Virus record (IMG/VR): IMGVR_UViG_3300031963_000072
Span: 1-64,000 of that record
Length of the DNA stretch: 64,000 nucleotides
Strand: one strand, 5' to 3'
DNA from: a virus
The notes under the pieces were generated by a model. That model was not told the DNA's origin and searched no databases. It saw nothing but the letters and a program-made list of their open reading frames with translations. Below are positions 1-62,949 of this stretch, piece after piece; positions within the stretch are counted from its first letter, which is position 1, and every line of letters starts with the position of its first letter. The position numbers and the translations under genes were made by a program.

Positions 1-400
1 CCTTATCGGTAACGGAGTTATCCTTAAACACAAGAGTTCCATCACGATAGAAATCCTTCAATTCACACTCCTCAATCACCTGGATTGGAAACATTTCATC
101 TGGTGGAAGATTAGGAAACTTCAAATCACTCATCTGGTTTCGAAACAGATTTAGGATACGAATAACCTCACGATAAGAAGAACCACGTGCAACTACGAGA
201 TGTTGGATGTTCGGATTATTCCTGTAAGATTCCAGAACTTTGAGAACTAAACTTATGGTTCTTCCAGTATTTCGTAACCCACCACACTCCATCAAACCAT
301 CCCGTACATTCTCGTTATACCTACGTGTGGAGTACACATCAGGATCCTCGAGGGGAACGAGGGTATTGTTATTGTAGATTTTTAGATTTTGTTCTTTCAT
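1..400 (-). CDS. hypothetical protein, truncated by the window edge
   Basis: My translation from ATG 400 (MKEQNLKIYNNNTLVPLEDPD...FKDNSVTDK) is open to position 1. Not in the ORF track because it has no stop. Promoter-like sequence directly upstream. Confidence 0.7.
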   Translation of the reverse strand, partial: MKEQNLKIYNNNTLVPLEDPDVYSTRRYNENVRDGLMECGGLRNTGRTISLVLKVLESYRNNPNIQHLVVARGSSYREVIRILNLFRNQMSDLKFPNLPPDEMFPIQVIEECELKDFYRDGTLVFKDNSVTDK

Positions 401-406
401 ACTATC

Positions 407-434
407 ATCCTATCACTCCCATGGGAACTTTACA
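407..434 (-). promoter_or_regulatory. sigma70-like early promoter (TGTAAA ... TAGGAT)
   Basis: Minus strand gtgtaaagttcccatgggagtgaTAGGATgatagtATG; same layout recurs before several other genes. Confidence 0.5.
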
Positions 435-675
435 CACCTCTCGCGAACTGATCACATAACCACCCGATCTCACCCCGAGGGGAGAGAACCCGGTACCACA
501 ATGTACTGTTCAATCCCTCCACACACGTATCCAACACGAGGAGGAGATCCGAGTTCCAAACGTATTCACCCGTTCCCCACAGGGTGTGATCGTTCCTCAC
601 GGTGGGATCCCGAAAATCATGGGGAAACAATCTCACCCCATCAATCGTGGAAGTACACAGATCACCGATCCTCAT
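430..675 (-). CDS. small SH3/KOW-like protein (GDL family)
   Basis: MRIGDLC start, C-terminal YRVLSPRGEIGW; ATGA overlap with upstream gene. Confidence 0.75.
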   Translation of the reverse strand: MRIGDLCTSTIDGVRLFPHDFRDPTVRNDHTLWGTGEYVWNSDLLLVLDTCVEGLNSTLWYRVLSPRGEIGWLCDQFARGV

Positions 676-965
676 TCCACACCTCCGGGTTCAACGTGTT
701 CCGTATACTCATCACTCACCCACACGATCCCGAGGGAGGGAGAAAGAACTTTCAAATTCCACTCACCCCTCTTCCAGTTGGTTCCCTCGTAGGAGAACCC
801 GTACGCATGGAGGAATACGAGGAGATCTCCCACCTCCACCCGTTGTGAGGATCCACCACCCTCGAGGGAATCATTCCACACAAGATGGGATCGAGTTACA
901 CGTATCAGTTCACCAGAGGAATACCTCCAATCGTTCCGGATGGGATACTCGTGTTCGTACCTCAC
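672..965 (-). CDS. small SH3/KOW-like protein (GDL family)
   Basis: SGELIRV, VGDLLVF and KVLSPSLGIVWV motifs; GTGA overlap. Confidence 0.7.
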   Translation of the reverse strand: MRYEHEYPIRNDWRYSSGELIRVTRSHLVWNDSLEGGGSSQRVEVGDLLVFLHAYGFSYEGTNWKRGEWNLKVLSPSLGIVWVSDEYTEHVEPGGVE

Positions 966-1126
966 GAGATCACCACGAAGTTGAACCCCAACCAGGTTTC
1001 CACCCTCCCGAGGGAGGTGAGGATCCGGTATCTTCCGGGAAACTCCTCCACAACCACCTCGAGAATGATACCTGTGAGGTGGTTGTGTTTCACGGTGGTG
1101 AACCGAACCATATCACCGGGTTTCAC
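962..1126 (-). CDS. small SH3/KOW-like protein (GDL family)
   Basis: Start moved to GTG 1126 (MKPGDMV...GIILE...YRILTSLGRVETW), which overlaps the upstream TGA. Confidence 0.75.
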   Translation of the reverse strand: MKPGDMVRFTTVKHNHLTGIILEVVVEEFPGRYRILTSLGRVETWLGFNFVVIS

Positions 1127-1323
1127 GAGAGAATCTCCCAATCTCGTTCCCATCCCGCGTATTCCCAGGTTACCTCATCCACCTTACCATCCTCCCACAG
1201 GATCCGGATCCAAGAAACATTGGGAGAGGATGAGGGGTGGTGTTCGAGGAGAGTTCCAATCCAGGTTCTGTTCTCTGGATTCCATTTGTGTGGATGGTAC
1301 GCGAGGAGGGTTCCGAGTTTCAC
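1123..1323 (-). CDS. small SH3/KOW-like protein (GDL family)
   Basis: Start moved to GTG 1323 (MKLGTLL...IGTLLE...IRILWEDG), coupled to the upstream stop. Confidence 0.7.
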   Translation of the reverse strand: MKLGTLLAYHPHKWNPENRTWIGTLLEHHPSSSPNVSWIRILWEDGKVDEVTWEYAGWERDWEILS

Positions 1324-1556
1324 GAGATCACCTGGAAGTGGTGCACCATCTCCGATTCCGTGAGGAGTAACCGGATCACCCTCCCGCCCTCTGTGGGAAC
1401 GGAGAGGTAGATCTCGTTGTACCACCGCGTGAGTGCGTGATCCTCCCGTGTGAACCCGATCACCATCCCAATGAAACTCTCCGGGAACGCGAGGCACGAT
1501 AAGTACGAGGTGGCGGGAACACCGGGTGCGAGGGTGATGAGATCGCCGAGTTTCAT
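1320..1556 (-). CDS. small SH3/KOW-like protein (GDL family)
   Basis: MKLGDLI, IGMVIG; ATGA overlap. Confidence 0.75.
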   Translation of the reverse strand: MKLGDLITLAPGVPATSYLSCLAFPESFIGMVIGFTREDHALTRWYNEIYLSVPTEGGRVIRLLLTESEMVHHFQVIS

Positions 1557-1732
1557 GAGATCACCTCGAGGAACTCACCCGTGAAAATGAGATCCTCACC
1601 TGTATCGGAACGAAACCCGAAGTAATCGTAACCCCACACGCACTTCTTGCGGGAGAGCACCTGAACCAACCACCTCTTCTTCGGTGATACCCGGCCCCAA
1701 GCGAGGAAACAATCAGGTTCCCAACCTTCCAT
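1553..1732 (-). CDS. hypothetical protein (59 aa, not in ORF track)
   Basis: My translation: MEGWEPDCFLAWGRVSPKKRWLVQVLSRKKCVWGYDYFGFRSDTGEDLIFTGEFLEVIS*. Stop overlaps the next ATG; TAGGAT lies 6 nt upstream of the start. Confidence 0.65.
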   Translation of the reverse strand: MEGWEPDCFLAWGRVSPKKRWLVQVLSRKKCVWGYDYFGFRSDTGEDLIFTGEFLEVIS

Positions 1733-1764
1733 GGTGCCATCCTACTATGGTGGGAGTGAACTTT

Positions 1765-2049
1765 TCACGCGAGTTCGTACCATTTCTCGATGTAATCCGC
1801 GCGATTCCAGTTGAAATCAGGTGCGCGAGCACCACGGGTTCCTCCATCACACCACATGATGTGGAAACACCGGATCCCGAGTGATTCATCCCGCCCCGTT
1901 CGGAGAATATCAGGAGGTAAACGAGGATCACCGTGTAGCATTACCGCCTCATCGAGTATGAACCCAGTGTAGTTGTGTTCATCCGGATCGAGATCGCCCT
2001 CCCAGGTTTCTCGCAGGTACACGATGAGATCACCTGGAGAGAAACTCAT
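1765..2049 (-). CDS. small SH3/KOW-like protein (GDL family)
   Basis: Start moved to ATG 2049 (MSFSPGDLIVY...TGFILDE...FHIMWCDG). Confidence 0.7.
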   Translation of the reverse strand: MSFSPGDLIVYLRETWEGDLDPDEHNYTGFILDEAVMLHGDPRLPPDILRTGRDESLGIRCFHIMWCDGGTRGARAPDFNWNRADYIEKWYELA

Positions 2050-2210
2050 GCGTGAACCAACCATTCGTGGTGGCACTCGTAGATCTCCCCGTGGCAGGTG
2101 AGTAAACGTGCCTGCCTCCCGAACACGGGATCCGCGAACTCCCCCAGGTAGATCGAGAGGATGTTCTCCCGTCCAAACCCACGTGATAACACAAGATCAC
2201 CAGGTTTCAT
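2046..2210 (-). CDS. small SH3/KOW-like protein (54 aa, not in ORF track)
   Basis: My translation: MKPGDLVLSRGFGRENILSIYLGEFADPVFGRQARLLTCHGEIYECHHEWLVHA*; ATGA overlap downstream. Confidence 0.7.
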   Translation of the reverse strand: MKPGDLVLSRGFGRENILSIYLGEFADPVFGRQARLLTCHGEIYECHHEWLVHA

Positions 2211-2415
2211 ACACAATCTCGTAGAACTGATGGATCATACTGATGGGAACGAGATCGATCGTGAGGTGATCGCTCCAGAAGATCTTCGCATCAGGTTCCT
2301 CACCCCTCGGATCTGGAACGATCTCGAGGATGATGCCCACGAAGTTGTAGGTTTGTGGATCCTCCCCGGGTTTCCTCCGAGCTCGAGCGTAGGTGATCAC
2401 ATCACCCGGTTTCAC
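2197..2415 (-). CDS. small SH3/KOW-like protein (GDL family)
   Basis: GTG start, KPGDVI...VGIILE...KIFWSD. Confidence 0.7.
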   Translation of the reverse strand: MKPGDVITYARARRKPGEDPQTYNFVGIILEIVPDPRGEEPDAKIFWSDHLTIDLVPISMIHQFYEIVYETW

Positions 2416-2746
2416 CCTTATCCTCCTCATCCGCTCCGAACATGTTAAGGAGAGGATCGCTCAGGTGTTCCTTCGTGATGGGAAATCCCTTGAAATCTCG
2501 GGATGCCCAATCCATCCACACGATGAACCACCGGGTGATCTCCTCATCAGGCCCGATGATCAACCAGCCTGCGAACCACTCATCGCTTCTCCATCGCCAG
2601 AAATCGATCGCCTGTGCCGTGGTGAAGGCGATTCCAAAAGTATCATGGATCACACGTTTGATGCGTGCAACATCTTCCACCGAGTGGTATTCGCTCTCTC
2701 GATATGCCTCGAATGAGCGGTTCACTTCTTCTTGAGTGTACTTCAT
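2402..2746 (-). CDS. hypothetical phage protein
   Basis: 114 aa with WxWxS..xAGW motif; promoter-like TGTAAA...TATGAT upstream. Confidence 0.7.
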   Translation of the reverse strand: MKYTQEEVNRSFEAYRESEYHSVEDVARIKRVIHDTFGIAFTTAQAIDFWRWRSDEWFAGWLIIGPDEEITRWFIVWMDWASRDFKGFPITKEHLSDPLLNMFGADEEDKGETG

Positions 2747-2756
2747 AGTGATTCCA

Positions 2757-3011
2757 TCATAATACGTGGTGAGAGATTTTTACATCCGGTTGATGTAGGA
2801 ACGCATCCTCAATCCACCCAATGTTTCCGGTGGGTGTGAGGATCCTGCTCCAGCCCACGGATTCATCGAGAACGAGAGAAAGTTCACCCACGTGAATCAC
2901 ACCGGATACGTCGAGGGAGTAGAGACGGGAGTAGAGAGGCAACTCCCTGCGTTCCTCCTCCGCAATAGTATCATAGATCTCACGGAACACAACGAGGGCA
3001 CCGGGTTTCAT
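2757..3011 (-). CDS. small SH3/KOW-like protein (GDL family)
   Basis: MKPGALVV ... WSRILTPTGNIGWI. Confidence 0.75.
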   Translation of the reverse strand: MKPGALVVFREIYDTIAEEERRELPLYSRLYSLDVSGVIHVGELSLVLDESVGWSRILTPTGNIGWIEDAFLHQPDVKISHHVL

Positions 3012-3199
3012 CTTCGCAACCCGATGCGCTTGATCGTTCCAACTCTCGCAGATCTCACTCCCGAGCGGGAGAAGAGAACACGGAACACGCCTTCATTCCA
3101 CGAACCGCCCAATATGATGCCTACATCATTGATGGTGGTGCCACGATCGGAATCATCATAATCATAGGAGTACCACGCAACGAGATCACCCGGGTTCAT
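3008..3199 (-). CDS. small SH3/KOW-like protein (GDL family)
   Basis: MNPGDLVAW, VGIILG, FRVLFSRSG. Confidence 0.75.
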   Translation of the reverse strand: MNPGDLVAWYSYDYDDSDRGTTINDVGIILGGSWNEGVFRVLFSRSGVRSARVGTIKRIGLRR

Positions 3200-3693
3200 C
3201 GAGCAGGAACGAAGGCACCACCATCCCAGTACTTAGCGCAGTTCACGAAACCCGGATAGTTACAGTAGAGGAACCCCGCCTCCTCGGGAGATGGGATACG
3301 GGTGTTCGATTCACGAGCGGGAGTTGCACCTGCACCTGCCGGAGCGGAACTGTAGTACGGGAAGAACCTGCAGAAGGAATCGAGCCTCCTCGAGATATCC
3401 ACACAACACACGTGCTTCGTATCATCACAGGTTTCAACGAGTGAACATGCACGTGAGCAATCGTAGGTGTGAACAACACCGCAACCGAGATCTCGGGTGA
3501 AGGTACCACAAGATTTGGAGCACACCTCGCGTTCGTTGGCATCCCGTGGAGTGCATCCTGCCTGAGGAGCAGGTGTAACTGTGGCATCCGGGCGATCGTG
3601 GGAGGGAAGGGCCTCGCGGGAACGAGCGATGGATGTGCGAGGATCATCGCATGCGGCAAGAAGGATGAAGGATAGGGTGATGAAATTTCTCAT
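3196..3693 (-). CDS. cysteine-rich putative lipoprotein
   Basis: Signal peptide with lipobox LAA|C and a Cys-rich segment; SD-like AGAGGA upstream. Confidence 0.7.
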   Translation of the reverse strand: MRNFITLSFILLAACDDPRTSIARSREALPSHDRPDATVTPAPQAGCTPRDANEREVCSKSCGTFTRDLGCGVVHTYDCSRACSLVETCDDTKHVCCVDISRRLDSFCRFFPYYSSAPAGAGATPARESNTRIPSPEEAGFLYCNYPGFVNCAKYWDGGAFVPAR

Positions 3694-3709
3694 GTTTCCT
3701 CTGTGGTGT

Positions 3710-3949
3710 TCAATCTACACTAGCGGTATCGCACTGTACACGATTATTATATCGAGAAACCGCCCTCAATTCGTATCCCCACAATCTCGTGTAGCCTCGA
3801 ATCATCGGATCCCAACATTCCCACTCCTCATAACCGGGCATAGGAAATCGAACCCGCAATGCGAGGTAAAACCTCCCGCCCTTCTTCGCGGAGAATCCCA
3901 CATATTGTAGGAGATCCCCGGTGGTGAAAGCACCCACCTCCTCTCTCAC
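3710..3949 (-). CDS. small SH3/KOW-like protein
   Basis: FTTGDLLQY motif; coupled to the upstream gene. Confidence 0.6.
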   Translation of the reverse strand: MREEVGAFTTGDLLQYVGFSAKKGGRFYLALRVRFPMPGYEEWECWDPMIRGYTRLWGYELRAVSRYNNRVQCDTASVD

Positions 3950-4215
3950 GTGCGCACCACATCGAGATCATCTGCATTCACCCAGCCGATGAGATCGCCC
4001 ACGGAAACCTTCACCCCCGTTCCGTGGTAGAAGCGAGAGCGGGCCACGGGATCCTTCCCATCGATCACCTCCAGCACGAGTCCAACAGCATCATTTGGGA
4101 ACCGCCCGATCATGTGCGGAAGTTCTCCCTCGTGGGATTCCCAGGATTCGAAGATATCTCCACCAAAGTAGTGCGGGTGTATCACTCGAGCACGGACGAG
4201 ATCACCTGGTTTCAT
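3946..4215 (-). CDS. small SH3/KOW-like protein (GDL family)
   Basis: Start moved to ATG 4215 (MKPGDLV...VGLVLE...LIGWVNADDL). Confidence 0.75.
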   Translation of the reverse strand: MKPGDLVRARVIHPHYFGGDIFESWESHEGELPHMIGRFPNDAVGLVLEVIDGKDPVARSRFYHGTGVKVSVGDLIGWVNADDLDVVRT

Positions 4216-4466
4216 AGGGTCCACCAATATTCCTTCCTTGCCCATCCCGATTTTCCGTTGGGCATGAGCAGCCGAACGAAGTGATCTTGAACCTCAAGCA
4301 CTGTTGAGGTGGTTCCTGGTTGAATCCATAGAAGTGCAGCAACGAACCGCATCCGCTTCGCATCCTCGAGAGTATCGAAGAGACATGTGCGATCGATCTG
4401 CGTGAGAGTTGCGAGCTCCGGTGGCTCATCGCTCCTGCCCAGCTGCACGAGGCAACCTGGGCTCAC
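4212..4466 (-). CDS. small SH3-like protein (GDL family)
   Basis: SPGCLVQL ... VRLLMPNGKSGWA. Confidence 0.7.
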   Translation of the reverse strand: MSPGCLVQLGRSDEPPELATLTQIDRTCLFDTLEDAKRMRFVAALLWIQPGTTSTVLEVQDHFVRLLMPNGKSGWARKEYWWTL

Positions 4467-4470
4467 GGTA

Positions 4471-4824
4471 TTACCTCTCTTCGGGATCCTCGGGAAGCCT
4501 CCCTGCGTAGGTTGCGAGGAATCTTTTGAGTGTTTTCACGATGGAGCTGTAGCCTACAGTGGAGATGGCTCCACTCATAGTACCTGCGAGCATCGATCCC
4601 AACAACTCCTCTCCAAAGGCAGAGGGGGTGGGAACTCCAAACTTGTGGAGCGGTATTCCGAAGAGAGCGCCCGTAAGCATTGCGTGGAGGGGAAATGTGA
4701 TCCAGAAGATCCGTCTCCACCCTGTGGAGGCATCCCCCAGAGGCACGATCAGTTTCTTCGATACCTCTCCGCCCATGCCGATGAGAAAGGGCATCACGAA
4801 AATTGATACGATCCATTCGTTCAT
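4471..4824 (-). CDS. small multi-pass membrane protein (holin-like topology)
   Basis: Three hydrophobic segments and a charged C-terminus. Confidence 0.6.
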   Translation of the reverse strand: MNEWIVSIFVMPFLIGMGGEVSKKLIVPLGDASTGWRRIFWITFPLHAMLTGALFGIPLHKFGVPTPSAFGEELLGSMLAGTMSGAISTVGYSSIVKTLKRFLATYAGRLPEDPEER

Positions 4825-4833
4825 GATCCATAA

Positions 4834-5043
4834 CTATTCCCCAACCTCGCAGCCGTGCAGGAGAAATTGCGCAATCCAACCCCTCCGCCCATCTCCAACG
4901 AGCACCTCCACGTTGCCGCCCGTGGGATCCTCTCCCAACACGATGAGCATCGTGCCCGCAGGCAACTTATCCCACGGAAACATCGGAGAATCCTGGTACA
5001 GGTAGGCGGGAGATGCAAGCGCGAGGAGGGAACCTATCCTCAA
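4834..5043 (-). CDS. small SH3-like protein (GDL family)
   Basis: RIGSLL ... VEVLVGDGRRGWI. Confidence 0.7.
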   Translation of the reverse strand: MRIGSLLALASPAYLYQDSPMFPWDKLPAGTMLIVLGEDPTGGNVEVLVGDGRRGWIAQFLLHGCEVGE

Positions 5044-5255
5044 GGAGTGGCCTCCTCGAAGAGATCGAGAACATCATCGGCATCGTGGGTGGAAACGATG
5101 CCATCCGGGAAGAGCAACCGCATCCCGCCCCGCTCGTGATCCCAGCCCAGGTAGATGGGAGTGCGGGAGTGGGAGAGAACCTGGCCCTCGCGCCCGAGTT
5201 TCGGCACGAGGAGGGCACCGGTGGGAATTCGGGCGGGGAGCTTCCGCGTTCTCAT
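5040..5255 (-). CDS. small SH3/KOW-like protein
   Basis: PTGALLV ... MRLLFPDG; coupled overlaps. Confidence 0.6.
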   Translation of the reverse strand: MRTRKLPARIPTGALLVPKLGREGQVLSHSRTPIYLGWDHERGGMRLLFPDGIVSTHDADDVLDLFEEATP

Positions 5256-5518
5256 CCCATCCCCTTCACGGTGAGGCTGGTGGATGGTGCCACGGTGCCG
5301 ATGCTGATATCACCTCGAGAATCGATGCGAAACCGTTCAAATTTCGGGGTGATCGCCCAGAGAACGGTGAACGCACCCCTACCTGCCAAATTCGCAGAAT
5401 CGATGATGATCCCCGAGGAGTGGGCGGCAGAGGCGAGGTGGCGAACCTGCGAACCGATGGTGAGGGGGCCACCATCGAGGGATTCGAGCTCGTAATCGAG
5501 TGCGCGTGTGGTTCTCAT
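5252..5518 (-). CDS. small SH3/KOW-like protein
   Basis: TIGSQVRH, SGIIID, FTVLW. Confidence 0.6.
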   Translation of the reverse strand: MRTTRALDYELESLDGGPLTIGSQVRHLASAAHSSGIIIDSANLAGRGAFTVLWAITPKFERFRIDSRGDISIGTVAPSTSLTVKGMG

Positions 5519-5736
5519 TCTTCAAGTCCCGGAAAATCCTGAAGGGTGAGAGTTGGCATGTCGAGCGCCTTCATCATCCACATGAGATCCTGACGCAGTT
5601 CACGTGTACTCTCTCCGAAAGGCCTCGATGCATTCATCGTGTACATCTTCGGCTTGCCGTCTTCATCGTAGTACACCTCGTGGATCTCATAAGATTTCCC
5701 ACCATCGAGGCTCATCACTCTATAGTTCCAGGACAT
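5515..5736 (-). CDS. conserved phage hypothetical protein (WNYRV...IHEVYY)
   Basis: Start moved to MSWNYRV; motif recalled from common phage small proteins. Confidence 0.7.
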   Translation of the reverse strand: MSWNYRVMSLDGGKSYEIHEVYYDEDGKPKMYTMNASRPFGESTRELRQDLMWMMKALDMPTLTLQDFPGLEE

Positions 5737-6242
5737 TTTAGTTTCTCCAGCGTTGATTTGGCCCACAAGAGCTCGTGTTTCTTCCTAAACCTAAAAGAAA
5801 ATCCGCCTCTCTTGAAGAGGTCGGAGTCTTGAGGAACGGGTATTAATTCGCTAAGTTCAAACTTCTTGCTAAGAGAGTGTTCAACTTTAGTTATGAGAAC
5901 TGTGGTATCGTGATCAATATAAAAATCCCACCAGTCTTCGAATTTCTTTTCAGACTCTCTCAAGACCCGAAGCGTTCTTACGAATCTATCCAGTCTGTCT
6001 CCAACAACGCCATGAGCTCTTTGTATATTCGTATGACTCCCTCTAGCAGCTTCTTCAAGCGCAGAACGAGAAATGTGAGTCGGGCGCCAAGTATCTTCCA
6101 TTGTAAATCCTCCCACTACTTCCTCGAAAGCTCTTTGGACGCATATGGGAGGAATTATGCCGCCTTCGAGTAGATTTCGACAAGAAAGATAAAAGGTTTG
6201 AAGCGCTTCTTTTTCAGACGCAGAAGGTTCTCTAAGAGACAT
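5715..6242 (-). CDS. hypothetical protein, possible His-Me finger (HNH-like) nuclease
   Basis: RAHG ... VLITKVEH pattern; AT-richer than its neighbours; own promoter TGTAAT-17-TATGAT. Confidence 0.55.
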   Translation of the reverse strand: MSLREPSASEKEALQTFYLSCRNLLEGGIIPPICVQRAFEEVVGGFTMEDTWRPTHISRSALEEAARGSHTNIQRAHGVVGDRLDRFVRTLRVLRESEKKFEDWWDFYIDHDTTVLITKVEHSLSKKFELSELIPVPQDSDLFKRGGFSFRFRKKHELLWAKSTLEKLKCPGTIE

Positions 6243-6272
6243 GAGTATATCATATCATCGACTGCAAGAGGA

Positions 6273-6542
6273 TTACATCACGGGAAGTAAATCCCAATAA
6301 TCAGCCCATCCTACAGCATCGCCTGCGATTATTCTGCAACTCACACCTTCATGCACAGCGAGGATGAGGCCCAGAGTTCCTATTGGAACATATCCTGCAG
6401 GATCTTCTGACTTCAAAGCGAGGACAGGATCGGTCCACAGGTACACTCCCATTAATCTGGGAGAACCCTTCAGACATACTAATTGTCCGATTTTGTAAGA
6501 ATATTCTGTTCTATCATCCAGTCCCACGCTGCACCCATCCAC
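6273..6542 (-). CDS. small SH3-like protein (GDL family)
   Basis: YKIGQLV, GTLGLIL, VGWAD; start uncertain. Confidence 0.65.
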   Translation of the reverse strand: MDGCSVGLDDRTEYSYKIGQLVCLKGSPRLMGVYLWTDPVLALKSEDPAGYVPIGTLGLILAVHEGVSCRIIAGDAVGWADYWDLLPVM

Positions 6543-7177
6543 CTATTATATCCCATCCTCGTGGAGTGGATCCCATCTCCCCCTCGTGGCTTCTCGATCG
6601 CCTCAGATTCGAAGTAGTGAGTAGCATATTTCTTGATGAGTGCACGTTCATCAGCGATGTGTGGGATTCGTTTGGAGGAGATGTCTGGTGGGCCCAACCA
6701 GACGAGCACTGCGCCCGAATCTTCCACGATCTTCACGAACTCTCCGTAGAGAGTCTCGTACTTTTTGGAACGATCGTAGATGATCGCATCGTTGGTGCCG
6801 AGGGACACAACAACAAGCTCCGGTCGATTCCTCTCTAGGTCACTCTTGACCCATTTCATCCACTGGAAGATGGAAGTCCCACTCACCACATGGGACACGG
6901 GCATGTATCCGCCCTTCCGTGCGAGGGAGATGAACTGAGGTTCCATTCCCACCGCGAGTGAATCTCCAATGAGCATCACGGTGGCACCCGGGCTCACCGT
7001 TGGAAAGTACTGAGAACCACAATCGAACTCCCACTGCTCGTGTGGCACCTCTTGAGGTTTCACCTCTTCAGCCGCAGGAAGCGGCCTACTCACGCAAGAA
7101 ATTAACGCGATTGTTGTTAGGAATATTCCTGCTTTTGTCACGAAAGTAATATTATCACATAATTGATGGTTTTTCAA
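6479..7177 (-). CDS. SGNH/GDSL hydrolase, putative lipoprotein
   Basis: GDSL, GTND and DGIH blocks; hydrophobic N-terminus ending LISC. Confidence 0.85.
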   Translation of the reverse strand: MKNHQLCDNITFVTKAGIFLTTIALISCVSRPLPAAEEVKPQEVPHEQWEFDCGSQYFPTVSPGATVMLIGDSLAVGMEPQFISLARKGGYMPVSHVVSGTSIFQWMKWVKSDLERNRPELVVVSLGTNDAIIYDRSKKYETLYGEFVKIVEDSGAVLVWLGPPDISSKRIPHIADERALIKKYATHYFESEAIEKPRGGDGIHSTRMGYNRWMGAAWDWMIEQNILTKSDN

Positions 7178-7192
7178 TCAACTCTCCGCAAT

Positions 7193-7199
7193 ATAGTTA
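7193..7199 (+). promoter_or_regulatory. putative late-promoter motif ATANTTA (ATAGTTA)
   Basis: 10 nt upstream of the yeaH ATG; motif recurs before about 17 genes. Confidence 0.5.
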
Positions 7200-7209
7200 T
7201 GATTAACGC

Positions 7210-8370
7210 ATGAGCATTTTCAAGGAACATCGAACAAACGCGGATAGAGTTGCGAGTGATCGCAGGAGGCACAAGGAGAAGATCGATAAGGCGATACGTG
7301 AGGGCATCCACCACATCGTTGCGGACGAATCGATCATCGGCCAGAACGGCAAGCAGAAGTTTCGTATCCCCGTTCGTGGTATTAAAGAGCACAAGTTCGT
7401 TTATGGAGATAACGGCAAGCAGGTTGGCTCCGCACCTGGGCGAGATGTGAGTAGAGGACAAAAGCTAGGTGGTAAGGATCGTGGTAAGCCTCAGAGACCT
7501 GATAAGCCTGGTAGTGAATCCGGTGAGGAGTACTATGATGTTGAGATGGGCCTTGATGAGCTCGCCGAGTACCTCTTCTCGGATCTTGGGCTCCCCGATC
7601 TCCAGAGAAAACAGCTCACGAACATCTCCTCACACAAGTTGAAGCGAAATGGATACAGGCCACAAGGCATCATTCCCCGCCTCGATCGAAAGAAATCCGC
7701 GATCGCCCGCATCAAGAGGATGAAGGCTGCAGGATTCGATCCTGAGACCGTTGAAGAAGGAGAAACGTTTCCCTTCCATGAAGATGATCTCAAGTACAGG
7801 CACTACAAACTAAAGGATGAACCATGCACCAACGCAGTTGTGTTCTTTGTGATGGATGTTTCCGGCTCAATGGACCAGAAGAAGAAGTTTCTCGCGAGGT
7901 CGTTCTGTTTCCTGATGTACCAGTTCCTCCGAACGAAGTATGAGAACATCGAGGTGGTGTTCATCACCCACGACGTGGAAGCCCATGAGGTGAACGAAGA
8001 GGCCTTCTTCACGAAGGGAACTTATGGCGGCACGATAGCGTCAACGGGTTTGGTGAAGGTGAATGAGATCATCGAGGAGCGTTTCCATCCGTCCGCCTGG
8101 AACCTCTATGCAGTGCACCTATCGGATGGTGATAACTTCGACTCAGATAATGGCAAGTACCTCGAAGCTCACGCGAAGCTGGAATCGATGGTGCAACTCT
8201 TTGGATATGTGGAGCTGGAACCCGAGAAGAGCTATATGGAGGAGAACAAACTCTCCAAGGTGTTGATGCCTCGGATACGAGAGAACTCCCGATGTGTTAC
8301 AATCCAGAGTAAAGATGATGTTTGGCCTGCGTTCAGGGAGATCCTCAACGCATCGAAGGGAGAGCAGTGA
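7210..8370 (+). CDS. yeaH: YeaH/YhbH (DUF444) vWA-domain protein
   Basis: DRRRHKEKI, IPVRGIKE, FHEDDLKYR, MIDAS DVSGS, SDGDN. Confidence 0.93.
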   Translation: MSIFKEHRTNADRVASDRRRHKEKIDKAIREGIHHIVADESIIGQNGKQKFRIPVRGIKEHKFVYGDNGKQVGSAPGRDVSRGQKLGGKDRGKPQRPDKPGSESGEEYYDVEMGLDELAEYLFSDLGLPDLQRKQLTNISSHKLKRNGYRPQGIIPRLDRKKSAIARIKRMKAAGFDPETVEEGETFPFHEDDLKYRHYKLKDEPCTNAVVFFVMDVSGSMDQKKKFLARSFCFLMYQFLRTKYENIEVVFITHDVEAHEVNEEAFFTKGTYGGTIASTGLVKVNEIIEERFHPSAWNLYAVHLSDGDNFDSDNGKYLEAHAKLESMVQLFGYVELEPEKSYMEENKLSKVLMPRIRENSRCVTIQSKDDVWPAFREILNASKGEQ

Positions 8371-9668
8371 TGGATTACAACCTTTCTGACCTACAGGAAT
8401 GGGATGAGAAGATCTGTGCAATCGCACGGAAGCATGGACTTGATTGGTTTGACATAGAATACGAATTTATAGATTATTATTCAATGATTGGTGCCATGGC
8501 CTTTCACGGGTTGCCATCCCACTTCAACCACTGGAGTTTTGGCAAGTCCTTCGAGCGTACCCACCACATGTACAATGCGGGCCAGGAAGGTCTTCCATAT
8601 GAACTTATAATTAACTCAAATCCTTCGCTCGCCTACATGATGCGGGAGAACCCACTTCCTCTGCAGATCCTCATCATGGCCCACTGCGTTGGCCACTCCG
8701 ATTTCTTCAAGAACAACCGCACGTTTAAGGGAACACGTCCGGATACCATCGTTGGCAGGTCACGAGCCGCGAAGAAGCGGTTCCAATCCTATGTGGAAGA
8801 TCCCTCCATCGGAATTGATCTCGTGGAGCAGGTTATCGATTCGTGCCACGCGGTGCAGTTTCAGATCCAACGTCCCGGTGCGATACGCAGAACTCGGCAG
8901 GAGATCATCGACCACCACAAGGAGAAACTGAAGGAGGATCCTGAAGCGGATTGGCTCGACACCACGCACAATCCCCTCGAACCTGATTATGATATTCTCA
9001 GTTTCATTGCAGAAAATGGGCGGATACCCTCCTGGAAGCGAGACATCATTGAGGTGTGCAGAGATGAGGGGCGGTACTTTTGGCCACAGATCCAAACGAA
9101 GATCATGAATGAGGGCTGGGCCAGCTACTGGCACTACACCATCCTCCATGAGCTCGATCTCCCACCTGAGATCCACCTCGCATTCATCAAATCTCACAAC
9201 CAGGTGATCCGCCCCCACATCGGTGGCATCAATCCATACCACCTCGGTTTTCATCTCTTTCAACGCATCAAAGAGAGACACGGTGTGGATGAAATGTTCA
9301 TCGCCCGCGAGGTGCACCACGATGGAGCCTTCCTCCGTCAGTACCTCACCCAGGAGGATTGCGAGGAGTTGAACCTCTTCTCCTACTCGCGGAAGCCCAA
9401 CGAGGATGTATCGGTTGATGATGTTTCCGATGAGGAGGGGTGGGAGGAAGTGAAGCGCAACCTCGTTGCCCAGGTGGGCGGAGGCTCCATCCCTGTTCTC
9501 TTCGTGAACGATGTGCGGAAGGATGGTTCCATGGCTCTCGGTCACGAGCACGATGGTCGAGACCTCGACATGAAGGAACTAAAGGCCACCCTCCAGCACG
9601 TAAAAACATTGTGGGAATACGATGTTAATTTGGACACAATTATTGACGGAAAGTACATGAAGTTCTGA
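8370..9668 (+). CDS. spoVR: SpoVR/YcgB family protein
   Basis: HWSFGK, YELIINSNP, AHCVGHSDFFKNN, TKIMNEGWASYWH, NPYHLG; start moved to ATG 8370, which overlaps the yeaH stop. Confidence 0.93.
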   Translation: MDYNLSDLQEWDEKICAIARKHGLDWFDIEYEFIDYYSMIGAMAFHGLPSHFNHWSFGKSFERTHHMYNAGQEGLPYELIINSNPSLAYMMRENPLPLQILIMAHCVGHSDFFKNNRTFKGTRPDTIVGRSRAAKKRFQSYVEDPSIGIDLVEQVIDSCHAVQFQIQRPGAIRRTRQEIIDHHKEKLKEDPEADWLDTTHNPLEPDYDILSFIAENGRIPSWKRDIIEVCRDEGRYFWPQIQTKIMNEGWASYWHYTILHELDLPPEIHLAFIKSHNQVIRPHIGGINPYHLGFHLFQRIKERHGVDEMFIAREVHHDGAFLRQYLTQEDCEELNLFSYSRKPNEDVSVDDVSDEEGWEEVKRNLVAQVGGGSIPVLFVNDVRKDGSMALGHEHDGRDLDMKELKATLQHVKTLWEYDVNLDTIIDGKYMKF

Positions 9669-9714
9669 TTTTTTGATTACAATAAACACACCTACTGCGA
9701 GGAACACCTGAAAA

Positions 9715-11649
9715 ATGAGCGTAAAGAACACACTCCTGAAGAAGATCACAGAAGCACGAGAGAAATCAGCGAACGAGAAGAAGTTCGAAGGCAACCTTCT
9801 CGATTACATAGAGCTGGTTGAGGCAGATCCATCGATCGTGAAAACAGCACACCAGCGGCTCAACGATGCCCTCACGGAGCATGGATCCTACGTGATGCCG
9901 GACTCAGATCCGAGGAAGCATAAGATCTTCGACGGAGAGAACATCAAGATCCACAAGTACTTCGAGGGTGAGTTCTTCGGAATGGAGAAAGTCCTTGCGA
10001 AGGTGATGAACTTCCTCGATTCTGCCGCCCATCGTGGTGAGGAATCTCGTCAGGTACTCCTCTTCATGGGCCCTGTCGGTGCAGGTAAGTCAGCCCTTAC
10101 GGAGCACATCAAACGTGCCTTGGAAGGTAAGAAGTATTACCACCTGAAGGGAGATCCCCACCGTGGTGAACCACTTCAGCTAATCCCGCGCTCCCTCCGC
10201 GGAGATTTCGAATCCGCCCTTGGAGTGAAGATTGAGGGTGACATCTCACCAGTAGCTCGCCACAAGCTCCTCAATGAGCTCGGCGGTAAGTACGAGAACT
10301 TTGCGGTGGAAGAATCATCCTTCTCCCAGCGTGCTCGAAGGGGTGTGGGTGTGGTTCCTCCCATGGATGCCAACTCACAGGATGTTTCGGTCCTCATCGG
10401 ATCAGTTGACATCTCCAAGTTGGACAAGTATGCAGAGGATGATCCTCGTGCTCTCTCCCTCAACGGTGCATTCAACGTAGGTAACCGTGGCATCGTGGAG
10501 CTCGTCGAGGTGTTCAAGAATGAGATCGAGTTCCTCCACACAATCATCACCGCGACACAGGAGAAGAGAGTTCCCTCGCCTGGTAAGTCGGACATGTTGC
10601 ACTTCGACGGTGTTATCATCGCCCACTGTAACGAGGCCGAGTGGAATCGTTTCCAGAGCGAGCACACCAATGAGGCCATCCTCGATCGCATCGTGAAGGT
10701 CTCTGTTCCCTACTGCCTCGAGTTGAACCAGGAGATGAAGATCTACGAGAAGATGCTCTCCAAGTCGGACTTCAAGCACCACATCGCTCCGCACACCCTC
10801 AAGGTGGCCTCGATGTTCTCCGTCATGTCACGTCTCAAGCCCTCGGCCAAGTGTGATCCACTCACCAAGATGAAGATATACAATGGTGAAGAGGTGCTGG
10901 AGAAGGGGCGTGTCAAGAAGGTGGACATCAAGGACCTCCGCGAGGAGGCGAAGCACGAGGGCATGGACGGAATCTCCACCCGCTTCGTGACGAAATCCAT
11001 CGACCATGCTCTTTCCAACTCTGAGAAGGGCATTGTGACGCCAATCTCCGTGATGGACTCGCTCACGAAGATGGTGAAGGAACAGATCACAGATGAGGCC
11101 TTCAAGAAGACCTGCCTCGAACTCCTCCAGAAGACTGTCCGAGACGAGTACCTCAAGATCCTCGAGACCGAGATCGCTAAGGCCTTCGTCACCGCCTACG
11201 AGGAACAGGCCCAGTCGCTCTTCAACTCCTACCTCGACAACGCTGAGGCCTACGTAACCCGTGCCAAGGTGAAGGACAAGGTCACGAAAGAGGAACGCCT
11301 TCCAGACGAGGAGTTCATGAAGTCGATCGAGGAGAACATTGGAATCGCAGGCTCAGCCAAGGATGGCTTCCGTGGCGATGTTACCGCCTACATGTTCGCG
11401 AAGATGAGGCGAGGCGATAAGGTGGATTACAGGGCCTACGAACCCCTCCGTGAGGCCATCGAGACCTACCTCATCAACTCCGTCAAGTCCTTCGCTCGTA
11501 TCGTGACGAAGTCCAAGTCACGTGACAAGGAACAGCAGGAGAAGTACTCAGAGATGGTCACGACAATGTGCAAGGACTACGGTTACACGCCGGAATCTGC
11601 TGAGGAAATACTTGCGTTTGCCGCGAACAACCTCTGGAGAGATTCTTAG
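9715..11649 (+). CDS. prkA: PrkA/YeaG AAA+ ATPase (annotated Ser kinase family)
   Basis: FFGME, Walker A GPVGAGKS, DDPRALS, GNRGIVE, AHCNE, EGMDGISTRF. Confidence 0.95.
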   Translation: MSVKNTLLKKITEAREKSANEKKFEGNLLDYIELVEADPSIVKTAHQRLNDALTEHGSYVMPDSDPRKHKIFDGENIKIHKYFEGEFFGMEKVLAKVMNFLDSAAHRGEESRQVLLFMGPVGAGKSALTEHIKRALEGKKYYHLKGDPHRGEPLQLIPRSLRGDFESALGVKIEGDISPVARHKLLNELGGKYENFAVEESSFSQRARRGVGVVPPMDANSQDVSVLIGSVDISKLDKYAEDDPRALSLNGAFNVGNRGIVELVEVFKNEIEFLHTIITATQEKRVPSPGKSDMLHFDGVIIAHCNEAEWNRFQSEHTNEAILDRIVKVSVPYCLELNQEMKIYEKMLSKSDFKHHIAPHTLKVASMFSVMSRLKPSAKCDPLTKMKIYNGEEVLEKGRVKKVDIKDLREEAKHEGMDGISTRFVTKSIDHALSNSEKGIVTPISVMDSLTKMVKEQITDEAFKKTCLELLQKTVRDEYLKILETEIAKAFVTAYEEQAQSLFNSYLDNAEAYVTRAKVKDKVTKEERLPDEEFMKSIEENIGIAGSAKDGFRGDVTAYMFAKMRRGDKVDYRAYEPLREAIETYLINSVKSFARIVTKSKSRDKEQQEKYSEMVTTMCKDYGYTPESAEEILAFAANNLWRDS

Positions 11650-11667
11650 TCAATCTCTAAAAGCAAG

Positions 11668-11700
11668 AAAGGCTCAGAGGATTCCTCTGAGCCTTTTTTA
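11668..11700. terminator. bidirectional intrinsic terminator
   Basis: aaaGGCTCAGAGG-att-CCTCTGAGCCttttt between convergent prkA and clpP. Confidence 0.85.
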
Positions 11701-11703
11701 GTA

Positions 11704-12306
11704 TCAGCCGAACGAATATTCTACATCAATCTTTAACTTTAGTTCCGGAACACGCAGGTGGTTGGCCAATCCATGCGATTGAGCCTCCGTGGCATCGAGG
11801 TACCAGTCCGCGTGAGAACGCTCGTGGATCATCTTGAGGAAGTATTCCTCTTCCTTGCCGCAGTTGGTTGCCATCTCCCGGTATAGCCATTGGTTCAATC
11901 GATCGGATTCCTTGGCATCCGCCTTGATCTCCTCCACCTTGCCGTGCGCTCCGGTGGAGACATCGTGGATCATGATGGTTGCGTGCTTATCCATGTAGCG
12001 GTGGCCGAAGGCACCGAAGGAGAAGAGGAGGGCACCACAACTCATCGCTTTGCCCTGAACGATCGTGGCCACCGGGATCTTGGAGGCCTTGATGTTGGCC
12101 ACCATGGAGAGGAGGGAGTAGACTTGCCCCCCATAAGAATCTATAATGACGGGCACGATGGGTTGGCCGGTGTTCTGAGCCTCACTCATCGAGTCAGAGA
12201 ACTTCTTTGCCGATTCTTCATCGAACTTATTCACTCGAATCACCACGGGTTGCTTCCGCAGTTCCACTTCACCGATCAGTTTCGAAATATCTCGTAGTAC
12301 GTTCAT
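11704..12306 (-). CDS. clpP: ClpP-type serine protease
   Basis: IDSYGG, AMSCG (Ser), IMIHD (His), DWYLDATEA (Asp). Confidence 0.88.
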   Translation of the reverse strand: MNVLRDISKLIGEVELRKQPVVIRVNKFDEESAKKFSDSMSEAQNTGQPIVPVIIDSYGGQVYSLLSMVANIKASKIPVATIVQGKAMSCGALLFSFGAFGHRYMDKHATIMIHDVSTGAHGKVEEIKADAKESDRLNQWLYREMATNCGKEEEYFLKMIHERSHADWYLDATEAQSHGLANHLRVPELKLKIDVEYSFG

Positions 12307-12716
12307 GTGTGCTTCTTTCTCCAGTTGTAGTATCTAACCAAGGCGTGATCACGGGGAGGAGCGGGAGGCAGTGTTCCCTTCACGAAGATCTCCCAGGCTG
12401 CAGCAGCATAATCACCGATGCCTGGGAGCTCCTTCGCATGCTGCCAGTTTGACCCCAGATAATATTGCGACATTTTTATTAGGTTACTAGCCCTCCTATT
12501 TCCAAAGCCTAATCTGACAATGACCTGGGCCAACTCTCCGTGGTCTGCCGCGGCCATGGCCTTAGCATCTGGATACTTTGAAAACAATCGTGGCAACACT
12601 TTCTCCATGGCAGCCCGTGTGGTGCAGTTGAGAAGCATGCAGGCGACAAGCAGCTTCCATTCATTGGGCCACAAGTCCTCTTGAATGAGAGAGTAAGGAG
12701 AACGGGGAGGTATCAT
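12303..12716 (-). CDS. HhH-GPD DNA glycosylase, MBD4-like
   Basis: PPRSPYSLIQE, WKLLVACMLLN, HhH LPGIGDY, PRDHAL: closely parallel to the MBD4 glycosylase domain as I recall it. Confidence 0.85.
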   Translation of the reverse strand: MIPPRSPYSLIQEDLWPNEWKLLVACMLLNCTTRAAMEKVLPRLFSKYPDAKAMAAADHGELAQVIVRLGFGNRRASNLIKMSQYYLGSNWQHAKELPGIGDYAAAAWEIFVKGTLPPAPPRDHALVRYYNWRKKHT

Positions 12717-13687
12717 CCTGTGTATCTTCTAGAAGTATGAACAAAGTTGGATTGAAAGTTAGCAGTCAAATCACACAGTGTTCTTTCAAAGAATACGACA
12801 GATTTTTTATCTTGGACTACTTTCCTCCTGTGCCATTTCCACTTAAAGGAGTCAAAATCCAAAGAGCAATTAAAAATTGTAGTCCCTGAATATGCCAAGT
12901 TTAAATCTTCGGAATCCGCAAAAGAAGAAAATCTATGCATCTCAACAAGCTGTTCAAATCCTCCGTGCATACACAGAAGCGGTCTGTCATCTCCGTCTAG
13001 CTTTTCTGTAACTTCACAAGTAACGTTGTTTTTTGACAAGATGTGATGCCCTAGAACAGAAGGCTTAGCACCAAGCAAATTTTCTTTGCTGCACGCAACT
13101 ATATACTCGCCGCCGTGGGACAAAAAATCATTGTATATCTCTGAGTTTTTAATTGAACTTATAAGATCTCCTGATCCGCACGGCCTGAGTACGGGACAAG
13201 ACTCCCTAATCTCGAGCAAATTGTCTGCTCTAAGCAGGAAGGTCTGATAGCTGAAGATTAAAGCTGCTTTACTTCCTACTGATTCACATATCTTTCTCAC
13301 GGCATCTTCGTGGGAAGGATCGACCAAAATCCAGACTTCTTTCACCCACGAAAGACGCATCAAGATCATTCCTAGCTGAGAAATATTAGAAGCTGGCAAC
13401 TCCGAAAGAAGATTTTCATGACAAATAACAGCGTGAGCAGCTTTCCCAGATACGAGTGCTTCTCGTCCCGTCCAAAAAGAATCTAGCTCAATGTGTTCAT
13501 GCTTAATAAGATTGCATTCAGTTGGTGCTTCGGGTGAAACAACAGTGTAGTCTCTTGGCTTTGATACAAGATCTAGAAAGTCAGCTATCTCTAGACCCCC
13601 ATCTCTATTTACTCTTTCGATGCAATCTACGGGTAGATTTTCAAGTTGTTCTTGTAGCTCAGAAAGAAATCCCGGGAATGATTTCAT
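12713..13687 (-). CDS. degenerate UDP-sugar pyrophosphorylase (UGP/UAP)-like protein
   Basis: PCGSGD, GGEYI, ENLL, CEVTEK, FFER resemble PxGHGD, NxDNL, MEVTxK; the N-terminal GGxGT loop is absent. Confidence 0.55.
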   Translation of the reverse strand: MKSFPGFLSELQEQLENLPVDCIERVNRDGGLEIADFLDLVSKPRDYTVVSPEAPTECNLIKHEHIELDSFWTGREALVSGKAAHAVICHENLLSELPASNISQLGMILMRLSWVKEVWILVDPSHEDAVRKICESVGSKAALIFSYQTFLLRADNLLEIRESCPVLRPCGSGDLISSIKNSEIYNDFLSHGGEYIVACSKENLLGAKPSVLGHHILSKNNVTCEVTEKLDGDDRPLLCMHGGFEQLVEMHRFSSFADSEDLNLAYSGTTIFNCSLDFDSFKWKWHRRKVVQDKKSVVFFERTLCDLTANFQSNFVHTSRRYTG

Positions 13688-13717
13688 GAACCTTATTGTA
13701 TTTAATAACTCACAATT

Positions 13718-14566
13718 TTATAATGTCAATTTGTCGCCTTGAATGCACTGCAGGACTTTTCTGAAAGAATCCCCGTACTGGGAGCGTAGCAGAGTCTCCG
13801 GATCTTCCCACTTTGCTATTCCTTCATGAGAGGAAGTTAATTGACCTGAGAACTTAACGGCTCTGAAGAAGTAGATGTTTTTCTCGCCCATCTTTTGCTT
13901 GCACAAATAAACAAGCTTGTCTGCGACGATTCCTGTTTCTTCATACAGCTCTCTTGCGGCAGCATCTTCAGGCGTTTCTCCCACCTCGATGCCACCTCCA
14001 GGCATGTTCATATTTTTTATGTCGCCGCCTCGAGAAACAGCGAGAACTTTATTGCCCGAAGTTACTAAAACTATAGATGCGCCATCTACGGCAGGAACCT
14101 CTTCTGAAGCCAAGTCTTTTTCAAGTGAGGAATTTAGACTTCTTACACTTTGTGCATTCCTGATATTGCCTGGTGCTTCATATCTACGCAGACCAGACAT
14201 TGAAAAATCACTATCCATCTCTAGGAGGGGAGAAGACTTTAGCCTACTGTGAAATTTTTTCTTAAGTGCTCTTGAAAGCAGCTTTCTTGTAACTTTTTGG
14301 TCTCCGCCTGATCTACGAAAAAATTCTTTGTATTTCTCAGAAGCGTAATTCCTAATGTCACTCTCAAGGTCATCTTTAACCTCTACACCGTATATCTCTT
14401 CCGCCATCTCGAGCCAGCCGTCGACGACGTCGTTTATGTTTGTAGTCTTCGTAAAAAAAGATCTCATGAGATCTTTTGCAGAAGCTGATCCTCTTTCTCT
14501 GTCTTTTAGGTAAAAAATTCCCTCTAGAACCTCTTCTACGTACTCTTTTAAAAGTTGATTTTTCAT
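13718..14566 (-). CDS. NUDIX hydrolase with N-terminal extension
   Basis: Nudix box GGIEVGETPEDAAARELYEETG; N-terminal LLKEYVEEVLE peptide. Confidence 0.9.
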   Translation of the reverse strand: MKNQLLKEYVEEVLEGIFYLKDRERGSASAKDLMRSFFTKTTNINDVVDGWLEMAEEIYGVEVKDDLESDIRNYASEKYKEFFRRSGGDQKVTRKLLSRALKKKFHSRLKSSPLLEMDSDFSMSGLRRYEAPGNIRNAQSVRSLNSSLEKDLASEEVPAVDGASIVLVTSGNKVLAVSRGGDIKNMNMPGGGIEVGETPEDAAARELYEETGIVADKLVYLCKQKMGEKNIYFFRAVKFSGQLTSSHEGIAKWEDPETLLRSQYGDSFRKVLQCIQGDKLTL

Positions 14567-62814: not shown

Positions 62815-62949
62815 GATTATTCCTATTCCTTTTCCTCTATTCGCCTGCAGACAATAGCACCACACCACGTGGTGAACCATCGCCGTTATTTGAATCCTCA
62901 AACTAACACAAGGAGGATTGACTGTTCAAAATAGTTGTCACAATAGAGA

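Follow-up and report, generated by a model that had tools for sequence, protein, structure and literature searches.

The subject of this analysis is an island at the left end of a 64,000-nt window (bases 1-64000 of the 81,920-nt IMG/VR record IMGVR_UViG_3300031963_000072, classed as 'linear', with a CheckV completeness of 25%) in which the words GAC and GTC are almost entirely missing and the dinucleotide GC is progressively lost. Throughout, GWC denotes GAC and GTC pooled and GpC the dinucleotide GC; the record of the window is G000, G001-G014 are related IMG/VR records, L-labels are metagenome loci and X-labels sequencing runs. The window encodes a DnaE-type polymerase, a class I/II-like ribonucleotide reductase, a DnaB-like helicase, a RecA/UvsX-like recombinase, a Volactin-family actin, SpoVR and PrkA. 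Its left 8 kb gave no blastn match among cultured phages, and the 1,446 phage records matched by its DnaE protein all fall below 60% identity, with ~27% for the best among the matches listed. A search with PrkA retrieved 80 related IMG/VR loci, several of them on contigs of 250-360 kb. Thus, the phage of the window, a freshwater jumbo phage of ~300 kb, is a member of a clade of uncultured jumbo phages. The left 9 kb are present in 20 public runs, among them 8 labelled 'fungus metagenome', from which the DNA may originate, as well as independent freshwater metagenomes from 2017 and 2023.

The island part of the window is occupied by an array of ~20 tiny, co-oriented and mostly overlapping genes on the minus strand (2-5518; products of 55-165 aa), delineated from the chain of open reading frames (ORFs), their translations and alignment. 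The leftmost gene (2-400) is truncated by the contig end, and the reading frame in 4430-5045 was set by substitution phase (14/71/27). Most of the products share the pattern 'KPGDLV...GIILE...RVL.P.G..GW', which we provisionally label SH3-like. The assignment is weak: Pfam SH3_3 matched 1 of 10 island proteins (E 0.0035, 17.9 bits vs a cut-off of 27), and the AlphaFold2 model of a 77-aa member, with three strands and two helices, has a low-confidence mean pLDDT of 63.8. No close relatives of the island proteins were found in IMG/VR (three queries), among cultured phages or in GTDB genomes, and the ESM Atlas gave no usable match.

Loss of GWC and GpC in the window

In 1-5520, the GWC-purged part of an island that goes on leftwards past the contig, GWC occurs 8 times (3 GAC and 5 GTC, at 2171, 2910, 2924, 4080, 4195, 4219, 4382 and 4713) against ~183 expected (97.6 + 85.9; observed/expected ratio, O/E, 0.04), and it is missing altogether from 1-2170, where ~69 occurrences (GAC 36.5, GTC 32.5) are expected from base composition. 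The loss of GpC is graded, with 2, 1, 8, 19, 14, 21, 26, 30, 31, 31 and 37 occurrences per 500 nt from position 1. In the deep zone (1-1400), GWC is absent and GpC almost so (O/E 0.08; RGCY 0/21, RGCR 1/23, YGCY 0/19, YGCR 6/21), and in the middle zone (1401-5520), GWC is nearly absent and GpC partly lost (O/E 0.69; RGCY 0.35, RGCR 0.68, YGCY 0.78, YGCR 0.95). Within 1-1380, 6 of the 82 expected GpC remain and, with AGC, GCT, GGC and GCC all at 0, all six are YGCR. Further right, the O/E of GWC is 0.57 in 5521-12000 and 1.12 in 12,001-81,920, where that of GpC is 1.00. The first-pass annotation of this DNA had reported the absence of GAC and GTC from 1-2170, about 8 of them in 1-5520, six GpC in 1-1380 and normal frequencies in the replication genes, and our recount agrees with it on each of these points.

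The avoided word had been described there as GNC. This holds for GWC, which stands at 0.03 in the middle zone, but not for GGC/GCC, at 0.65 in the same zone, so that GNC as the avoided word was ruled out. When all classes of 2-, 3- and 4-mers were scanned without bias, the word-free stretch that stood out most in G000, G002, L084 and L085 was that of GAC/GTC. In the pooled deep zone (12.6 kb), GWC is found 0 times vs 367 expected, and since every sequence context is missing, the reader appears to be one of the 3-mer itself; for the same reason, the earlier suggestion that the short cores of many host defence sites were purged is unlikely. Of the GpC-containing 3-mers, AGC/GCT shows the strongest depletion in the pooled deep zone, at 0.05 of expectation. 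Avoidance of CRISPR protospacer-adjacent motifs (PAMs) was considered as well, but the type I-D PAM GTH would also remove GTT and GTA, which stand at 1.0-1.5, and we know of no PAM equal to GWC.

Several related words stay abundant in the island part of the window, as the first-pass annotation had noted: CpG (381 observed, 396 expected), GATC (79 vs 21 expected), GAAC (56), GTTC (44) and GTAC (20). The excess of GATC and GAAC/GTTC is not an independent signal, given that a resampling null forbidding GWC and RGC/GCY yields 58.7±4.2 GATC (62 observed) and 72.8±5.6 GAAC/GTTC (82 observed); it is a by-product of the avoidance. The most enriched 3-mers of the island are GAT/ATC (2.0-2.3) and AAC/GTT (1.3-1.5), and its G+C content is 0.49-0.55 vs 0.45. 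Separately, AAG/CTT is at 0.51-0.63 of expectation in the island vs 1.56 in the remaining genome.

The depletion survives the codon-matched comparison that the first-pass annotation had proposed as a check. Under three nulls that keep the proteins, 5 GWC are seen vs 56-133 (z -9.5 to -15). One of the nulls retains the island's own codon usage and the deficit persists, which implies that sites spanning codon borders are avoided too. The same annotation held that coding is bent to fit, and this is borne out: the ratio of GAT to GAC is 102:2, and GTC makes up 1 of 113 Val codons. C-ending codons are otherwise favoured in the island (ATC 64:ATT 14, TTC 50:TTT 15, CAC 30:CAT 7). Proteins are affected as well, with 0-1 Ala in 5 of the 7 leftmost ones and, in the five leftmost, 4 Ala among 433 residues vs 7.6% elsewhere. 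As a further compositional feature of the proteins encoded in 1-5520, Lys is low (2.8% vs 8.2%), and Arg (8.4% vs 4.6%) and Trp (2.8% vs 1.2%) are high.

Unlike the loss of GpC, that of GWC does not fade rightwards as had been described but ends in a step. The sharp border (5514-5528, minus strand) lies between the last GWC outside, at 5526-5528, and the GAATGAG stop/start overlap of the genes 5515-5736 and 5252-5518. The junction is kept in L085, where the last GWC lies 75 nt inside it, and in L084, with a more gradual front in which the last GWC is ~3 kb further in. The conserved gene just beyond the purge (5515-5736, minus strand), translationally coupled to the first purged gene, has 5 GWC vs 7 expected. 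An SH3-like paralogue recognised in the alignment outside the island (6273-6542, minus strand) serves as an internal control and is unpurged, with 6 of 8 expected GWC and 12 of 14 expected GpC. Still further right, over yeaH, spoVR and the 5' half of prkA (7210-10600, plus strand), GWC is partially depleted in a 'halo' (O/E 0.28, 0.44 and 0.48). The same genes are at 0.73-0.94 in L085, and the lowest whole-gene value of PrkA among 69 relatives is 0.65.

The contig end and the islands of related phages

Contigs, rather than reads, of four runs (X1, X9, X10 and X11) were placed on 1-14000. All four bridge position 5520 (X1, 1089-10784; X10, 4559-7484; X11, 2042-6833; X9, 5447-6519), and because these runs come from at least three independent studies, a chimera or misassembly at the border was ruled out. 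The first-pass annotation had taken 1-5520 for the left end of the genome. Position 1 is the stopping point of two JGI-type assemblies (G000 and L083), yet Logan contigs of X1 (2,126 nt) and X9 (2,654 nt) extend 1,023 and 1,732 nt to the left of it, and in L085, G002 and G005 the island lies inside the contig or record. Accordingly, a genome end at this point was dropped as unproven, and the 'left end' of the window is an assembly break.

Within the array, a short repeat between paralogues (1089-1128) is where the assembly graphs of X1, X9, X10 and X11 break or branch, with contig ends at 1089-1103; X1, X10 and X11 share the same loose end at 1128, and a second copy of the repeat is found in L085 at 18719-18768. 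At the gene border 5254, X9 and X10 run on into GC-rich sequence containing GAC. The alternative continuations at 1128 and 5254 suggest gene-cassette variation in the array. X11 represents a mosaic strain, with 2 differences in 4,792 nt of the island and 1 in 1,184 nt of the near flank, and with 5-8% differences in 8400-13599; a segment is replaced at 8372-8400, where 702 other letters take the place of 27 nt of the window. In spoVR and prkA, 119 of 2,095 and 87 of 1,125 nt of X11 differ from the window. Thus, a near-identical island adjoins genes diverged by 5-8%, indicating that island and flanks differ in their recent history.

Five metagenome loci were found through orthologues of the 77-aa gene 2197-2430. 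One of them, L085 (SXGU01435694.1, a 222,862-nt contig of which 20,231 nt were examined), is syntenic with the window at ~75% nucleotide identity, window positions 8998, 5520 and 1 corresponding to 4421, ~7900 and ~14,400. No GWC occurs in it from 7972 to the end of the examined stretch at 20,231, that is, over 12.2 kb with ~340 expected, so that the GWC-free DNA extends at least 5.8 kb past the counterpart of window position 1. GpC in L085 is normal at 8-9 kb and, past 12.5 kb, drops to 0-0.2 of expectation. Hence, the window covers no more than the proximal portion of the island. Three short contigs (L083, L084 and L087) bear it as well, and L086 duplicates L085.

The records of nine relatives were examined whole or largely, and an island was found in three of them (L085, G002 and G005). 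In G002 (297,894 nt; complete by CheckV, with a 123-nt end overlap), the sole low-GWC zone lies at 57-70 kb, with 4 GWC in 57.0-63.0 kb; in G005 (211,097 nt), it lies at 124.0-144.7 kb and includes a GWC-free stretch of 6,668 nt. Both islands have normal DNA on either side. The length is at least 11-12 kb in the window's lineage and 12-21 kb in relatives (13-21 kb in G002 and G005). No island was detected in G008, G010 and G004, which are complete or nearly so, in G003 (60% complete), in the 100,000 nt examined of G001 (103,725 nt) or in the 40,000 nt examined of G014 (132,044 nt). At the islands of G002 and G005, neither the GC skew nor the strand map has an extremum. The distance between island and prkA is ~4 kb in G000 and L085, ~15 kb in G005 and ~90 kb in G002, and a purge tied to the neighbourhood of prkA was ruled out, as the longest GWC-free gap is at most 699 nt in 80 prkA loci of relatives.

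In G005, both borders fall within an SH3-like array, family members of which at 121.5-124.0 kb lie outside and are unpurged. Inside the island, on the opposite strand, are three genes for GIY-YIG homing endonucleases (130,258-131,151; 135,484-136,455; 141,366-142,346), with 1 of 16, 0 of 15 and 6 of 19 expected GWC and near-normal GpC. Given that opposite-strand genes are purged and SH3-like paralogues outside are not, the purge is positional and not tied to a gene family. A 546-aa gene with a transglycosylase domain in the G005 island has 8 of 51 expected GWC. In the G002 island, a pair resembling IS200/IS605 (63,245-64,832; a 146-aa Y1-transposase-like and a 393-aa TnpB-like product, assigned by eye from motifs) has normal GWC, with 4 of 9 in the TnpA-like and 26 of 27 in the TnpB-like ORF. 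Comparison of the homing-endonuclease genes, the transglycosylase gene and the insertion element shows that residents of the island are purged over time, GWC faster than GpC, and that recent arrivals are unpurged. The three GIY-YIG genes are 45-49% identical to each other, contain repeated 'WEDPE' modules and, in the sequence examined, were found only inside the island. An amphipathic N-terminus of the 'MKITVSQLRRIIREEV' type starts island proteins in G002 (56,840-57,687 and 62,887-63,099) and G005 (142,918-144,107).

The island blocks that align between window and L085 differ in 824 of 3,871 columns. About 10.6% of the possible single changes create GWC, so that ~87 would be expected, but only 4 are present in the window and 1 in L085. 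With so many differences and so few new sites, the depletion results from ongoing purifying selection on the DNA itself. On the sense strand of L085, AGC and GCT are at 0.22 and 0.27, GGC and GCC at 0.42 and 0.35, TGC and GCA at 0.40 and 0.45, and CGC and GCG at 0.48 and 0.42. Depletion is equal for a word and its reverse complement in 3 of 4 sets (L085, L084 and G005), the exception being the window, with AGC at 0.26 vs GCT at 0.50; this equality points to a reader of the duplex. Altogether, the depletion is conserved across ~21-25% nucleotide divergence, is strand-symmetric and is confined to one island per genome. The GpC component is more variable. In the deep zones of G000, L084 and L085, there is a hierarchy of RGCY (0.00-0.05), RGCR/YGCY (0.00-0.23) and YGCR (0.28-0.42), whereas in G005 and G002, the loss is context-independent, with all four classes at 0.29-0.60. 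Thus, the second reader seems to differ between lineages.

Possible causes of the depletion

T5 and T7-like phages are known to avoid restriction sites regionally, but only ordinary sites of at least 5 bp, whereas here a 3-mer is absent over 12 kb and a dinucleotide nearly so. The island thus extends regional site avoidance to words of 2-3 bp, at a cost in alanine and codon choice. T5-like phages are restricted only via sites in the first-step-transfer DNA (PMC10644984), T5 destroys the DNA of its host during the presence of that first-step-transfer DNA in the cell (PMC10644984; bioRxiv 10.64898/2026.04.02.716235), and how T5 spares its own DNA meanwhile is stated to be unclear (PMC10644984). 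Like the island, the pre-early DNA of T5 and BF23 comprises ~5-8% of the genome, carries small, mostly unknown genes and has sites tolerated only elsewhere. Unlike the island, which is bordered by a gene overlap, the T5 block is part of a ~10-kb terminal repeat and is closed by a non-coding stop signal rich in repeats; furthermore, T5 avoids ordinary sites of 5-13 bp case by case, whereas in the island a 3-mer and a 2-mer were removed wholesale and the proteins pay for it. No homologues of T5 pre-early proteins turned up in the family scans made of island proteins. In Murciavirus (Autographiviridae), only motifs in the first-injected region are reported to decide sensitivity to the Type I restriction-modification system Mme2I (PMC12455610). 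Selection on sites is regional there too, but it concerns one or few sites of a bipartite Type I motif in ~40-kb podoviruses with known ends. For prokaryotic viruses in general, genome-wide avoidance of short, mostly palindromic restriction words is described; compared with the complete, regional loss of 2-3-bp words here, it involves 4-6-bp sites and is usually partial (PMC6286503).

Enzymes with recognition sequences of the appropriate length are described from chloroviruses, the endonucleases of which recognise 2-4 bp, and degradation of host DNA sets in within 5 min, presumably by packaged enzymes (PMC7019647). CviJI cleaves PuGCPy, and relaxed conditions add PyGCPy and PuGCPu, PyGCPu not being listed in that account (PMC7019647). 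This order, with RGCY first, RGCR/YGCY next and YGCR spared, is the order of depletion in G000, L084 and L085, but not in G005 and G002. In chloroviruses, which infect algae, the whole genome is protected by cognate methylation, whereas in the island phages the sites are absent from one island. A CviJI-like gene was not identified, and no nuclease is present among the island proteins scanned.

By analogy with the first-step-transfer DNA of T5, we tentatively favour, with confidence somewhat short of even, the reading that the island is unprotected while nucleases specific for 2-3 bp act. The leading-region logic of T5 and T7, to which the first-pass annotation had appealed, is retained here as the best available model. 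Window positions 1-5520 would be the promoter-proximal part of the larger island. Two readers are inferred, both acting on double-stranded DNA, one of GWC and one, similar to CviJI, of GpC/RGCY. A site inside the island would be nearly lethal and the thousands of sites elsewhere harmless if the island were bare in the cell while the frequent cutters are active, with the rest of the genome absent or shielded meanwhile. These nucleases could be enzymes of the phage itself for the destruction of host DNA, comparable to the packaged endonucleases of chloroviruses, or enzymes of the host. The sites of the weaker reader would be purged only where exposure is longest, producing the nested gradients. 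We know of no enzyme that reads plain GWC. That an undescribed double-strand GWC reader exists alongside a CviJI-like reader of RGCY/GpC, in freshwater bacteria or their jumbo phages, we consider possible, if rather doubtful. In its boldest form, the latter proposal would have the phages carry or induce ultra-frequent cutters that liquidate the DNA of hosts and rivals, and the 12-21 kb free of sites would be a 'safe chromosome segment', the one part able to lie bare in the cell meanwhile; immunity would then be achieved through absent sites rather than modification.

A number of observations weigh against an island exposed on entry. No physical terminus was located in the contigs, and the island is internal in the long contigs of three relatives (L085, G002 and G005). 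At 14.2 in X1, contig depth in the island equals that of the flanks (12-12.9), which argues against a collapsed terminal repeat. At the 5520 border of G000 and L085 there is no non-coding 'stop signal' and no intergenic DNA. Transcription runs from the sharp border towards the GpC-poor depth, so that, if the deep end entered first, the island genes would go in tail first. No excess of sigma-70-like promoters was detected in 1-8200, where a consensus scan yielded 9 sites vs 6.7±2.2 in shuffles. GpC in G005 has two minima, at ~128 and ~138 kb, rather than one at an edge. The insertion element with normal GWC shows that the G002 lineage tolerates sites at least transiently. Finally, no candidate nuclease or cognate methylase emerged: PF00145 (C5-methylase) is absent from all four records searched (G000, G001, the complete G002 and G005); a phyletic profile (present in G002 and G005, not in G003, G004, G008 and G010) returned 22 ORFs, mostly island genes; and a scan of ten ORFs, five from the profile and five other island genes, detected an AdoMet decarboxylase, an AT-hook and a weak PolX thumb but no nuclease.

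Timed entry of DNA is not needed to explain why outside sites are harmless if the phage modifies its own DNA at GWC and GpC after replication and the island must stay unmodified, for example, for immediate transcription by the host polymerase or for binding of a factor. The words are short and self-complementary, like the contexts of methylases or transglycosylases, and the genome encodes a dCMP deaminase, a divergent ThyX, a nucleoside deoxyribosyltransferase and an N6/N4 DNA methylase (47740-48525, minus strand; PF01555, E 8e-31) that could feed a modification. However, the missing C5-methylase counts against this explanation, too, even in the complete G002; genes of the PF01555 family number one in G000 and two in G001 but none in the island-bearing G002 and G005; a ThyA-like candidate (32536-33447) has no thymidylate-synthase match in Pfam at E <= 0.001; and a mark that slows transcription would hardly lead to 0 of ~340 sites over 12.2 kb in L085. 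The earlier proposal that the purge reflects the contexts in which the phage modifies its own cytosines has therefore gained no support, and we regard a zone kept free of marks as unlikely, though by no means negligible. Selection might instead act on a mobile block wherever it resides, through transfer or warfare during co-infection rather than the order of entry, the block being exchanged among related phages. Such a cassette would fit the near-identical island of X11 beside its diverged spoVR and prkA, the variable neighbours and distance to prkA, the alternative junctions at the gene borders 1128 and 5254 in several runs, and the homing-endonuclease genes and insertion element inside islands. 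It still requires a GWC reader, altering where selection acts and not what selects, and the fact that G000 and L085, ~25% diverged, share the gene junction at which the border lies bespeaks long residence; we consider a travelling cassette improbable.

Absence of words that are self-complementary as classes, as GWC and GC are, cannot by itself separate RNA from DNA, so an early endoribonuclease that cuts RNA at GWC and GC, with the co-oriented and tightly coupled genes of the island kept site-free to protect their transcripts, was weighed as well. It is very improbable, because AGC/GCT, GGC/GCC, TGC/GCA and CGC/GCG are equally depleted on the sense strand (L085, L084 and G005), the opposite-strand homing-endonuclease genes are purged too, and the loss of one mRNA among ~40 paralogues should not empty an island of sites. 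T7-type primases use 5'-GTC-3' as their template word, and the T4 primase uses GCT. An island free of priming sites on both strands would lack GAC along with GTC, and AGC/GCT is the most depleted 3-mer with GpC in the pooled deep zone; there is, however, no reason for a single priming site to be nearly lethal, and the RGCY hierarchy does not fit a primase, so that we give a desert of primase sites hardly any credence. The least probable causes are context-specific mutation pressure, such as C deamination in GC and GWC, an assembly artefact or a foreign insert. The C-to-T products of GWC are the most enriched words of the island (GAT/ATC and AAC/GTT), but a deamination-type bias is at odds with a G+C content that is not lowered and with the preference for C-ending codons except in Asp and Val, and mutation alone cannot hold 0 of 367 sites against 824 substitutions; an artefact is contradicted by the bridging of the 5520 junction in the four runs.

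The strength of the selection implies a reader of 2-3 bp that acts on a single defined stretch of the chromosome of a jumbo phage, and finding this reader would provide a new enzyme specificity and address the sparing of own early DNA of the kind seen in T5. A word-free island could also serve as a sequence-only marker for exposed or differently handled DNA in uncultured giant phages. To our knowledge of the literature searched, which excluded subscription journals and supplementary files, there is no description of a phage island free of GWC or GpC.

Neighbouring genes and other stretches

Next to the array, the genes of the halo form part of an intact block on the strand opposite to that of their neighbours (7210-11649, plus strand), comprising a yeaH-like gene, spoVR (PF04293, E 2e-116) and prkA (PF08298 and PF06798).

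Two other word-poor stretches were seen among the relatives. In G008, 131,795-141,704 is free of CATG over 9.9 kb (~35 expected), but it lies mostly within a structural gene for 2,349 aa and was rejected as an analogous island. In G004, a 33% G+C record labelled 'provirus' in IMG/VR, several kb at one end (343,524-357,664) lack TAAA, AATT, TTAA and ATAT; this stretch is probably flanking host DNA or an insert. G002 contains a second IS200/IS605-like pair at 49.2-51.1 kb.

Beside the bacterial-type replication genes, the window encodes an actin-like protein (58912-59988, minus strand) that matches the Pfam family Volactin with E 1e-67. The name of this family comes from a haloarchaeal actin.

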